From the IMG/VR virus record IMGVR_UViG_3300042691_010651: a stretch of 24,059 nt of DNA; one strand, given 5' to 3'. Position numbers and translations under genes: made by a program. This DNA comes from a virus. Lineage: Duplodnaviria > Heunggongvirae > Uroviricota > Caudoviricetes. Below the pieces are notes generated by a model. The model had not been told where the DNA came from, did no database searches, and saw only the letters and a list, made by a program, of their open reading frames with translations. Of this stretch, positions 1 through 22,404 are shown piece by piece; position 1 is the first letter of the stretch; every line of letters begins with the position of its first letter.

Positions 1-658
1 TTAAATTGAAATACTTATTTGCTAATTCATTAGCTCTTAATGATGCAATAACTTTTTCAATTACTTCTTGAGTAGATTTAGTAAGAGGTATTTTACCTTG
101 TAATTGATCTAATTCGTTAATATATAAAATACAATCAGATATAAATTTATTTATAAGAGTTTCTTCTTTATAGCTCTTATAAACTTCTGTTCTAATTCTG
201 GATAATCTAAATAATCTAATTGTATCTTCTACAGGTTTATCAACAAGTGATGCTAGTTTTTCAAATGCTGCAAGAGTTAATTTATTTTCAGATTCTCTAC
301 CTTTTTCTGTCTTTAGATCACTAACAATAGTTATTCCAACATTATTCAAATCTTCAATAGATGATAAGTTGTTTTTAAGTTTATAAAACTCATCAGCCAT
401 ACTTGCTATCATTCCATCTGGTCTAGGAACATTAGCTACTGCAAACTCTTGAGGTTTTTCAGCATATAAATGAACAAGTTTACCATTCTCTAAAGATTTG
501 TTTTCTTCAATTTCAACTTGTTTATCAAAGAATGATAGAAACTTTTGTATAGAACCTCCTTGTTCTGGTTGTAGATAAGATAAAGATGAGTTACTTACAA
601 CTATATCTTCTCTTGATCCTACGCTATAATAGTCTTTTTTAATTAATTCTTTCTCCAT
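1..658 (-). CDS. RecE/exonuclease VIII-like PD-(D/E)XK nuclease, N-terminal part (runs off the window)
   Basis: Not in the ORF track. Hand translation from ATG 658 is open to position 1: MEKELIKKDYYSVGSREDIVVSNSSLSYL...LENGKLVHLYAE. The YY...SNSSL and G..VH pattern resembles DUF3799/RecE-like N-termini. The catalytic half is outside the window. Confidence 0.5.
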   Translation of the reverse strand, partial: MEKELIKKDYYSVGSREDIVVSNSSLSYLQPEQGGSIQKFLSFFDKQVEIEENKSLENGKLVHLYAEKPQEFAVANVPRPDGMIASMADEFYKLKNNLSSIEDLNNVGITIVSDLKTEKGRESENKLTLAAFEKLASLVDKPVEDTIRLFRLSRIRTEVYKSYKEETLINKFISDCILYINELDQLQGKIPLTKSTQEVIEKVIASLRANELANKYFNL

Positions 659-1334
659 GATGTTTTTTATATAAATAATTATTTACAATACAAGGTCTAT
701 TATCTTTGTATATTTTAACTACTAACTTTCTATCTTCTATATCTGGTACAGGTACAAATATTGCATGAGGAGGTTCTGTAATATAATATCTATTATCTTC
801 TGGAATTTTATGTTGTTTTTTTAGTTCATCAGCAAAAGATTTACCATAAGGAAAAAATCTATTATCTAAATCCCAATCTTGTCCATTAGAAAAATGATCA
901 TCAATTATAGTATCAAAGAGATATACATCTATTCTAATAGGAAATCTTGTAATAGGTGATAAAGATTGAATTTCTTTACGAAAACTATCTTTAATTTGAC
1001 CTATCATGTTATTTCTATCTTGTCTTTGTATATTTCCATTATAGATACCTTGACCATTAATGTTTATTCTTTTTTCAGTTCCAACTAGATGAGGATTGGA
1101 TATGATCTTATTTCCAGAAGCCTTATCCACTAGAAAATCTACATTAACTTTTTTACCATCCTCTATTACAGAAAATGCTCTCCATGCATATAAGTCTTGT
1201 TGTTTAGAAAATTTAGTAGGTATAACATCTCCTTTTCGATAATATTTAGCACGTATACTCTTACTCTTTACATATTCTCGAATATATAAAGGAATTGTTA
1301 GTTCAACTATTAATTCTTTAGTCTCATTGTTCAT
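639..1334 (-). CDS. RusA-like Holliday junction resolvase
   Basis: DWDLDN...GKSFADEL...IPEDNRYY matches the RusA D-x-D-N, K..D and DD-like acidic motifs; lies in a recombination context. Confidence 0.7.
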   Translation of the reverse strand: MNNETKELIVELTIPLYIREYVKSKSIRAKYYRKGDVIPTKFSKQQDLYAWRAFSVIEDGKKVNVDFLVDKASGNKIISNPHLVGTEKRININGQGIYNGNIQRQDRNNMIGQIKDSFRKEIQSLSPITRFPIRIDVYLFDTIIDDHFSNGQDWDLDNRFFPYGKSFADELKKQHKIPEDNRYYITEPPHAIFVPVPDIEDRKLVVKIYKDNRPCIVNNYLYKKHHGERIN

Positions 1335-18084: not shown

Positions 18085-18387
18085 TTAATCGCTTGTACTC
18101 CTACTCCCACTCCCACTCCAACTCCCACTCCTACTCCCACTTCTACTCCAACTCCTACTCCAACTCCAACTCCCACTCCTACTTCCACTTCTACTCCAAC
18201 TCCTACTTCCACTCCCACTCCTACTCCCACTCACACTCCCACTCCCACTCCCACTCCTACTCCCACTCACACTCCCACTCCCACTCCAACTCCTACTCCC
18301 ACTCCAACTCCTACTCCTACTCCAACTCCTACTCCTACTCCTACTCCTACTATTTTCGTATCCTAATCTTAATAATGCAGCATTCAT
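18085..18387 (-). CDS. Ser-X (X = R/G/W/V) dipeptide-repeat protein (100 aa)
   Basis: TAATG overlap with the upstream gene; unique leader MNAALLRLGYEN, then 42 S-X units; terminator about 40 nt after the stop. Confidence 0.75.
   Translation of the reverse strand: MNAALLRLGYENSRSRSRSRSWSRSRSWSGSRSWSGSGSVSGSRSGSGSGSVSGSRSGSGSRSWSRSGSRSGSWSWSRSWSRSGSRSGSWSGSGSRSTSD
18097..18351. repeat. hexamer tandem array (ACT-CCN on plus, NGG-AGT on minus), 42.5 units
   Basis: Every unit starts ACT; 36 of 42 second triplets are CCN; contains an exact 36-nt tandem duplication (18211-18246 = 18247-18282). Confidence 0.97.
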
Positions 18388-19347: not shown

Positions 19348-19851
19348 TCATTTAAACCAATCAGGTTTACCTCTTTTAGTGAATTTTACAGGTTGTACTT
19401 TATCTGTTACTGTCCATTTATTGATCATAGTAGCTCTATATGCTTCAATAACTGGTAATTGCTTATACAAAGATGAGTTTTGAAAAGATTTAGGCTTACT
19501 ATCTGTTTCAATCATAAATGGAGTAATACTTGGTAAGTATCTCTTTACTGGATTAACATCATCAAATCTATACTCATATTCTTTAAATGTTTCAAGAAGA
19601 TGAATATATAACCACCAAGTATTAGCTCTATCTTTTCTTACCCATTTAGTTACAGGATGATTATATAGAAACAATGGTTCATTTCTATCTATATCACCCC
19701 ATAACGGAAATGGTACAACCCAATTATTTGTAACAGAATGGATATATGCTGTTAGACATTCAATATATTCTTTAGGCATATGCTTAATCCTTTTATCATC
19801 TAAGTTAATAGCTGATTGAATAGGAGAATTGTCTGTTACAAAAATATTCAT
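19348..19851 (-). CDS. pyrimidine-dimer DNA glycosylase (DenV-like) family protein
   Basis: MNIFVTD.SP..SA..LDDK...HM.KE; NHPVTKWVR...N..WL; EAYR...K...TKRGKPDW. Confidence 0.7.
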   Translation of the reverse strand: MNIFVTDNSPIQSAINLDDKRIKHMPKEYIECLTAYIHSVTNNWVVPFPLWGDIDRNEPLFLYNHPVTKWVRKDRANTWWLYIHLLETFKEYEYRFDDVNPVKRYLPSITPFMIETDSKPKSFQNSSLYKQLPVIEAYRATMINKWTVTDKVQPVKFTKRGKPDWFK

Positions 19852-20983: not shown

Positions 20984-21004
20984 AATTTTATTTTTTAGTT
21001 TATT

Positions 21005-21280
21005 ACTTGCAAGTCTGTCTCTTGCAAATCGCACAATTACGTTAAAACCACCAAAAACGTATAAGATATAGTGTCACCACTATAAATGCATCTCTAGTTC
21101 ACTTAGATTAGTTATTTGGCATATGAACTGATCCAAATAACCTACTGCTGCCAACATATTCTATTTAATAGCTTTTTAATCTTGAGGTATTAATTCCAAA
21201 GTACACCCTCTGTACTACTATTAAATGTAACAAACGAACTTAAACCATCCCTCTAATTCAACAAGTTCAGAATATGTTAT
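21005..21280 (-). ncRNA. unclassified structured RNA candidate
   Basis: About 8 hand-identified helices of 6-10 bp, including nested long-range stems, a GUGA tetraloop and a possible pseudoknot; no credible ORF. Confidence 0.55.
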
Positions 21281-21309
21281 AAACTTATCTGATTGTTCAA
21301 GTCAGATAG

Positions 21310-21735
21310 TTATTTCATATGTTTTTTAAAATTATTATACTTCTCTATATACGATAAAGTAGATTTAGGTATTTTCTTTTTGTATATTACATAAGTAATA
21401 CCTGCGTTATAAGAAACAAGTTTATTATATGTTGTTACTTTATAACCATAATATCTTAAAAGTTGAGGAATACGAACCTCAAACATCCATCTAGCTATTT
21501 TTTCATTAATACTCTTTATGAATAAGCTATCTGGTTTTATTTTTGTATTATTTAGCTTATTGTAATCAGCTAAACATACTGGATGAATCTGATAAATACC
21601 TCTACTACCACCATCCTTTAGATTTATTGCTCTAACATTTCCACTTGATTCTATTTTAGCAATAATAGATAGATCAATTTGCTGAGATTTAAGTTGAAAT
21701 GAAATTAATGTAATTACAATCCATAAATTTTTCAT
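21310..21735 (-). CDS. lytic transglycosylase (SLT/lysozyme-like) with an N-terminal signal
   Basis: IAKIESSGN..A......SRGIYQI...YNAG motifs; hydrophobic N-terminus MKNLWIVITLISF. Confidence 0.85.
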   Translation of the reverse strand: MKNLWIVITLISFQLKSQQIDLSIIAKIESSGNVRAINLKDGGSRGIYQIHPVCLADYNKLNNTKIKPDSLFIKSINEKIARWMFEVRIPQLLRYYGYKVTTYNKLVSYNAGITYVIYKKKIPKSTLSYIEKYNNFKKHMK

Positions 21736-22017
21736 TTTGTTTAATTTGGTGAAACATATATTTAAGATATAAGATACGGTTCATGTATAACCTTTTGTTT
21801 TAACTTTAAGTTGATGTCAAGTTACGGAGACATTAAAGAACGTTTAAACATTTTTTATCTTACAATGATTTATAAATTAATATAAGTTCTTTTACCTTTA
21901 ATATTTCTTACTAATTGATAAGAAATATTTAATTTTTTAGATATATTAATTAGTTTTTAAATCTTTTCATAACATTTTCTTTTTGTAATATTTTTGCGTT
22001 ACCCGAGCTATACTACG

Positions 22018-22404
22018 TGGAGGTGGAGGGACTCGAACCCTCGTCTTACAATACTAACTACTACAATTTATTTATAAGCTTAGTCAATTGTGAACTGACA
22101 ACTATAGGCTGCATTTTTGCAACTCCACCATCTAATAATTTCAAGTATTAGAAACTTTTGGAGTAGATATTAAGTGTTAACTCCGTTCTCACTTTAAGCA
22201 GCTTCTGCAAGTTCTGCTTCCATTACTGGAACCATCTTACGAACTACTGCATCTTGACGATTTCCAAGTACCCCACCTAGTGAAGTAACAAGGGCTTTAT
22301 TTGCGTTGTCAATTGTTGTGCATGCATATTTTTAGTAGGTATAACATACTTCCCTACGCTTAATTGTAATAACTAATTACTGTAATCAATTCCAAGTCAC
22401 CCCC
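22018..22404 (-). ncRNA. ssrA: tmRNA (transfer-messenger RNA), 387 nt, CCA not encoded
   Basis: Acceptor GGGGGTG/CACCTCC-A with G3.U; T-arm GAGGG-TTCGAGT-CCCTC; long P2 helix; pk1 (GTAGG/CCTAC plus GTATGTT/AATATGC); tag frame ending GCT GCT TAA. Confidence 0.95.
22194..22310 (-). other. tmRNA tag reading frame (A)DNANKALVTSLGGVLGNRQDAVVRKMVPVMEAELAEAA*
   Basis: Resume codon GAC preceded by CAATT, 13 nt after pk1; 38 sense codons then TAA. Confidence 0.8.

Follow-up and report, generated by a model that had tools for sequence, protein, structure and literature searches.

An apparently undescribed family of compact structured noncoding RNAs in environmental crAss-like phages

The window analyzed here, that is, the whole stretch of 24,059 nt of phage DNA, is an AT-rich segment (22-34% GC) that was found in freshwater samples and has nearly all of its genes on the minus strand. 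It encodes a family B DNA polymerase, rIIA, an ATP-dependent ligase, helicases, and a primase; the nearest relatives of the polymerase, at ~30%, are in a Maribacter phage and crAss-like phages. Read along the minus strand, a tmRNA gene is followed by the gene for an SLT-family lytic transglycosylase and then by the gap that holds the noncoding RNA (ncRNA) described below. The tmRNA gene (22015-22404, minus strand), 700 nt upstream of the ncRNA, was detected by an Rfam match of 75.6 bits, is represented in RNA contigs, and was missed by ARAGORN. Its 3' end lacks an encoded CCA, and the likely tag frame (22310-22194) is unusually long at 38 codons, ending AA; long tags also occur in related phages (22 aa in L012 and 29 aa in L123). 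The transglycosylase gene (PF01464; 21310-21735, minus strand) has a signal-peptide-like N terminus and lies away from any lysis or tail module. It also sits between the tmRNA and the ncRNA in the relatives L011, L012, L014, and L017, and it adjoins the ncRNA in this phage clade only.

An initial annotation of the DNA had placed a structured RNA of ~275 nt at 21005-21280 on the minus strand. All of the helices and motifs that it named are present: the stems 21278-69/21162-53, 21226-18/21171-63, and 21268-63/21241-36; the hairpin 21216-21200; the stem 21141-33/21119-11 with its loop hexamer (21129-24) and both possible partners of that loop (21101-096 and 21269-64); the hairpin 21084-67; and the stems 21061-56/21043-38 and 21027-21/21012-06. 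The structured RNA stands, and its limits shift: the 5' start lies ~30 nt earlier, in a hairpin at 21311-21282, and the end at ~20998. From the limits of conservation among homologues, the RNA contigs, and the fold, we infer an ncRNA of ~314 nt (20998-21311, minus strand).

The RNA opens with this 5' hairpin, P0 (21282-21311), which begins inside the stop codon of the transglycosylase gene, contains a conserved bulged A at 21285, and is the candidate receptor for a GNRA loop. A linker (21279-21281), invariant in nine close homologues, pairs with the 3' tail (21003-21001); the pairing can be extended to 6 bp, shows a compensatory extension in L012 and L015 (by eye), and would join both ends of the RNA. 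An alternative partner for the 3' tail, 21234-27, was considered and set aside: its pairing is disrupted in the L015 clade, and the linker is the better fit. Helix alignment then places a long outer stem, Pa (21278-69/21162-53), with a variable three-way domain (21153-21278 in all) that includes Pb (21268-36) and Pc (21226-21163; hairpins 21216-00 and 21193-76); in minimal homologues, the domain is reduced to a simple hairpin. An invariant GGCAGC and the following base, N7 (21146-21152), supply the 5' strands of two short helices, X (21151-49) and Pd (21148-46). After a variable, unconserved insert in Pd (21091-21145), covariation defines a segment (21062-21090) made up of the Pd 3' strand, a lone pair, a tandem U.U/U.C opposition, the hairpin Pe, and a UA linker. 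Pe (21084-67) is a fixed 7-bp stem with a GNRA loop (21077-74). The variable-length hairpin Pf (21038-21061; 12-57 nt among copies), a near-invariant AUUG-UGC-R stretch (21030-21037) whose UGC (21033-31) closes helix X, and the 3' hairpin Pg (21005-21029) follow in that order. In the window clade, the variable arms 21263-21200 and 21057-21044 carry repeated purine-rich loops (GAGGG, GAAGG, and GUGG types), with possible partners in the 21193-76 loop; minimal members are without these loops.

The search for homologues combined gene synteny with pattern scans and covariance modeling. The first were reached through relatives of the upstream transglycosylase traced to their contigs, with the RNA motif unused: on seven such contigs, a gap of 245-400 nt with the same short invariant words follows the gene, and on an eighth, the element lies after an inserted gene and is cut by the contig end. 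Patterns built from this synteny set found more copies in viral and metagenome contigs, many without the transglycosylase gene. A covariance model of the core scored held-out copies (L013, L059, L063, L018, L154, L191, and L224) at 43-80 bits and all else at no more than 22. The total is 25 distinct core-bearing copies and one fragment, with lengths from ~150 nt (the L022 clade) to 330 nt. All copies are intergenic and co-oriented with the flanking genes, which are unrelated between lineages, and the insert lengths break any reading frame.

The copies share a four-way junction with ~22 invariant bases, a core that the initial annotation overlooked and whose short helices are hidden in the single-sequence minimum-free-energy (MFE) fold of 21005-21280. 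Its order on the minus strand is G21152, helix X (21151-49/21033-31), Pd (21148-46/21090-88), the insert, Pe, UA, Pf, and AUUG. Invariance in the pattern-found homologues is partly ascertainment; the synteny-derived homologues already show the invariant bases. Across 19 aligned cores (41-73% identity to the window copy, 12 clusters at 80% identity, median pairwise identity 0.53), 98.1% of the cells in core helices are paired, and 12 of 17 pairs change on both sides. The core covariation score is 0.65, compared with 0.17 for shuffles, none of 500 of which reaches it, and at most 0.10 for slid controls; RNAalifold recovers X, Pd, and Pe unaided. Helix alignment shows changes on both sides in all eight pairs of the third core helix, in the segment that contains the lone pair and the 7-bp Pe, as in seven of the eight pairs of Pg, which is 100% paired, and the N7-N' pair in Pd occurs as A-U, G-C, and U-A variants. 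The lone pair A21087-U21064, which is C-G in other lineages and was not forced by the search patterns, is Watson-Crick in 25 of 25 copies (15 C-G and 10 A-U) versus 49 of 103 chance pattern matches; the change between A-U and C-G may be a single event. The tree of the 19 aligned cores is poorly resolved, and compensatory events were therefore not counted on it. Because helix X never varies, it is a predicted helix only. Covariation among the homologues does confirm the outer stem, the GNRA hairpin, and the last hairpin that had been described initially. Together, the copies constitute a phage-borne family that is noncoding and has a common secondary structure, and the window element is almost certainly a real structured ncRNA.

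The minus-strand assignment likewise held: the GNRA loop is present in 25 of 25 homologues, the G.U pairs favor this strand, the MFE of the sense strand is lower in 14 of 14 comparisons, and the flanking genes are all co-stranded. Folding energy (z of -2.2 for the minus strand and -3.95 for the plus strand) gives modest support for structure and none for the choice of strand, and MFE z-scores in the homologues do not separate the strands either. The earlier description of a novel phage ncRNA agrees with the absence of any Rfam match over 21005-21311 even at E<=10, with a covarying family in phages, and with RNA contigs that cover the element. At the gathering threshold and at E<=10, Rfam returned only the tmRNA over the window, and at E<=1-10, it returned nothing over the element in 12 homologue loci.

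The centerpiece of the initial annotation was a pseudoknot or alternative fold in which the loop hexamer of the 9-bp hairpin 21141-21111 pairs downstream (the possible pseudoknot 21129-24/21101-096) or upstream, which could make the RNA a switchable leader. Both pairings are possible on paper, but the hairpin and pseudoknot sit in a 57-nt Pd insert that is 15-87 nt long and unrelated in homologues, with helices only 57-67% paired across the alignment (mostly gaps). The insert is 27 nt shorter in the DNA run X17. In L011, the upstream protein is 98% identical and the 5' domain identical, yet the insert is replaced by 30 nt and the switch is absent. The hexamer occurs in the window copy only (1 of 25), its upstream partner is locked in a conserved stem, and a 6-bp loop partner of this kind arises by chance in 5.9% of shuffles. 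Given this variability, the replacement in L011, and the chance rate, the switch falls, and we assign it almost no credence.

Evidence of expression comes from ten RNA runs of seven studies (some perhaps one campaign). Of the words in a 401-nt query, these runs contain 41-62%; they were selected because the stretch occurs in them and say nothing of strand, start, or level. RNA contigs from three studies match the window with zero differences at 21021-21305, 21051-21301, and 21051-21298, without loose ends or joints. They stop at 21298-21305, a place past which a DNA contig continues. In the same runs, tmRNA contigs end 8-25 nt short of the true ends at best, a shortfall that would put the ncRNA ends near 21311 and 21000. 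The contigs hint weakly at a discrete RNA; the lack of RNA coverage over the flanking genes and the contig depths carry no weight in this reading.

Of the 25 copies, 22 have GAAA as the Pe loop, two (the window copy and L011) have GUGA, and one has GUAA. Natural pairings join GAAA to the 11-nt receptor and GYRA to a helix (PMC7913685, PMC2275092). P0 carries the 11-nt receptor or a variant in the close GAAA relatives L012, L013, L043, and L059, and in the GUGA-bearing window, it has a plain CU:AG helix at the same position (the same C-G pair, then U-A). Together with the constant length of Pe, this swap of loop and receptor speaks for an intramolecular strut, and from this one swap we infer that the GNRA loop of Pe docks into P0. 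Receptors resembling the 11-nt motif also occur in L014, L017, and L125, and an IC3-like one in L154 (by eye); of the 18 GAAA homologues scanned, just 7 show a clear 11-nt receptor, and no CC:GG receptor is evident in L050, the GUAA copy.

Every contig with a checkable terminase is crAss-like. They include a complete 97-kb crAss-like genome, G004, with a terminase, a portal, and a capsid protein 52% identical to that of cr108_1; G003, G005, L021, G161, and G162 share its terminase at 25-52%. Across the crAss-like lineages that bear the ncRNA, terminases are mostly only 24-35% identical. G004 also has 16 tRNA calls, some of them odd (a Tyr tRNA with an ATA anticodon; two with 8-base loops). It encodes no polymerase with a detectable relationship to the family B enzyme of the window.

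Within what was searched, the family is limited to freshwater and other environmental crAss-like phages. A blastn search of 50,697 phage records with the element and its minimal form returned short chance matches only, as did exact 16-mer and early 3'-pattern scans of viral contigs. SLT-based locus scans of IMG/VR found none, a pattern scan of GTDB gave 47 matches of which none had the full signature, and the covariance model R1 found no copy in 151 genomes of the phylum of the Emticicia genome. The five named phages cr108_1, phi14:2, Panino, FpV21, and cr50_1 have no copies. Some 50 pattern matches in gut phages proved to be one chance coding match and were discarded. The literature searched, which leaves aside candidate lists outside Rfam (Fremin 2023, PMC10690425), does not describe the family, which is uncatalogued and apparently undescribed.

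A cis-acting element, such as a 5' leader, mRNA stabilizer, or processing signal for the next gene, would agree with the position of start codons: in 14 of 21 copies, one is found 39-51 nt past the core, immediately behind Pg. We regard this reading as quite unlikely, and the leader role first suggested for the RNA is likewise unsupported: the downstream genes belong to many unrelated families, the window has only a 7-codon frame downstream of the ncRNA, and homologues show no conserved alternative fold or terminator. Furthermore, one copy (L224) is flanked by tRNA genes, tRNA-Met on one side and tRNA-Arg ~6 nt away on the other, and has no adjacent coding gene. The same features separate the family from riboswitches and attenuators. 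The L224 locus (470-990, minus strand) is itself a divergent, GC-richer copy inside a tRNA array (Lys, Met, the RNA, Arg); a tmRNA or tRNA gene is also nearby in the window, L011, L012, L014, L017, L043, and L059.

No small partner gene is common to the lineages, in which only terminase, portal, capsid, and replication genes recur, suggesting a host partner or none. A Bacteroidota-type promoter motif is absent upstream in 20 of 21 copies, consistent with processing. Intergenic, co-oriented copies with differing flanks, the copy among tRNA genes, and the lack of a promoter, terminator, or partner point to a stable RNA gene that is processed from polycistronic transcripts and presumably accumulates.

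We tentatively propose that the ncRNA of these crAss-like Bacteroidota phages is a stand-alone RNA, stable and compact, that acts in trans and binds a host factor, a reading that is quite possible if not yet probable. In this model, the RNA would be cut out of a long early or middle transcript, like the neighboring tmRNA and tRNAs, and would accumulate. Docking of the GNRA loop of Pe into P0, with the linker-tail helix tying the ends, would yield a compact, nuclease-resistant particle. The least certain step is that the ~22 invariant junction bases would form a rigid surface or pocket for a host-encoded macromolecule. The partner would most likely be a translation protein or an RNA-decay or defense protein, for which the RNA may serve as decoy or scaffold during infection. 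Binding of this kind is a guess from the conservation pattern and context, to which we give somewhat less than even weight; the dense invariant patch at the junction could just as well be a catalytic or small-ligand site.

The first of these sites would belong to a ribozyme, either a miniature, rearranged group II-like RNA that branches or back-splices or one that cleaves its own ends, which we consider unlikely but deserving of serious weight. In the group II-like version, P0 would be a domain-6-like hairpin with the bulged A21285 seven bases before AU, and GUGCR (21034-30) would be a 5' splice site with an epsilon-like pairing beside the invariant AGC (21149-47). A script places the bulged A exactly 7 nt ahead of AU and the outer stem in 12 sequences, to which inspection by eye adds L012; the core GUGC and AGC are invariant, the predicted helix X would pair GUGC next to AGC, and large ribozymes typically contain a tetraloop-receptor strut (PMC2275092). 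Yet L224 and the L022 clade have a shorter spacing, the bulged A could be a mere packing contact, AU also pairs with the 3' tail, and the fifth base of GUGCR is A in 11 of 24 copies. Rfam finds no group II match in the window or at the homologue loci, and the expected joint 21035>21278 does not appear in three RNA assemblies, whose single contigs span the core unbroken over 21051-21298 and drop rare forms.

Circularly permuted group II RNAs are defined by D5 (AGC, five base pairs, and a 2-nt bulge), J2/3, and D1-D3 (PMC8637638). The ncRNA is reminiscent of these introns in the order of bulged-A hairpin, AY, and GUGYG-like word, in the predicted epsilon-like pairing, and in the proposed tetraloop-receptor contact (PMC8637638), but it is not a member. 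P0 starts in the upstream stop codon with no D5 before it, and the stem above AGC measures 1-8 bp and lacks a conserved bulge. Between GUGCR and the next gene there is a single hairpin, with no D1, D2, D3, or purine-rich J2/3. The RNA is also far smaller, and its conserved core would fall in the excised linker. A new ribozyme class of 150-330 nt with a non-circularly rearranged group II/spliceosome-like core, in which the strut would bring A21285 to the GUGCR junction (21034) paired beside the invariant AGC for self-branching, capping, or circularizing, is distinctly improbable.

Other catalytic RNAs offer partial likenesses. As in the P4-P6 junction of group I introns, there are two short stacked helices, conserved single-strand flanks, and a GNRA/receptor strut; the strand order differs, there is no P3/P7 or G-binding site and no Rfam match, the core alignment contains no P7 motif, and all copies are intergenic. 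Phage self-cleaving ribozymes (theta/HDV-like, pistol, twister-sister, hatchet, and hammerhead) share the phage origin, the invariant junction bases, and, for one copy, the tRNA array. Unlike them, the ncRNA has no match to those of these families that Rfam covers and no nested double pseudoknot, and most of its copies lie away from tRNA genes.

For a small-ligand site, phage sponge proteins suggest an analogy: the ncRNA might be a trans-acting sponge or aptamer for a small molecule, e.g., a nucleotide immune signal. The small size and invariance of the junction, the tolerance of the arms to change, and the absence of a linked regulated gene would suit this role, which is nevertheless a long shot, and no riboswitch family in Rfam matches.

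More distant still is a mimic of the h5/h13/h14 region of 16S rRNA that would titrate a ribosomal protein or factor. Positions 21152-41 share a 12-nt identity with Bacteroidales 16S rRNA, and the Pg loop is like the h13 loop in part of the family. However, the match is not significant (E = 0.29), conservation within the family extends over only its first 7 nt, the remaining core has no 16S counterpart, and the Pg loop differs in L022, L050, and L121. We hold this to be scarcely credible.

Among large phage RNAs, GOLLD and ROOL are the closest in kind: ornate phage or prophage ncRNAs of unknown function that combine a conserved core with variable parts and often lie close to tRNA islands (PMC12286853). 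They measure ~600-800+ nt as opposed to 150-330 nt here; the present family shares the phage-borne, near-tRNA context and not the length or consensus, has no Rfam match, and was found in no bacterial genome here. An RNA-only oligomer or cage of the GOLLD and ROOL type, held together by purine-rich loops and an intermolecular tetraloop-receptor contact, is very improbable. The same phage, near-tRNA context (PMC12286853) and three GAGGG/GUGG-type loops in the window clade would agree with it, but minimal members of ~150 nt do without those loops, and no covarying kissing pair was found. Likewise, the raiA motif RNA is an orphan of ~200 nt with a compact monomer structure and a conserved core (PMC12286853), but it is bacterial and chromosomal, its core sequence differs, and it has no Rfam match here. 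The ncRNA is therefore a new family within the loose kind of orphan ornate phage ncRNAs and a member of no known family.

New classes of natural RNAs with tertiary folds are rare, and several have proved to be ribozymes, riboswitches, or novel architectures. This family would be the first of structured ncRNAs tied to environmental crAss-like phages in the literature searched. Its 150-nt minimal form (about 1980-2132 of L122) is easy to transcribe, probe, and solve, and the family offers a natural tetraloop/receptor swap. Whether decoy, sponge, or catalyst, its role would add a new level to phage-host biology in Bacteroidota.

Finally, two minus-strand genes further along the window deserve mention. 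A pyrimidine-dimer glycosylase-like gene (19348-19851; PF03013 is weak in relatives) is a recurrent downstream neighbor in the clade. At 18085-18387, an open reading frame of 100 aa, rich in Arg, Ser, Gly, and Trp, runs over a 6-bp tandem array of 42.5 copies and overlaps the stop of a 120-aa gene with a 93% identical counterpart in L043; it possibly encodes an RS-repeat nucleic-acid-binding protein or is a variable repeat.
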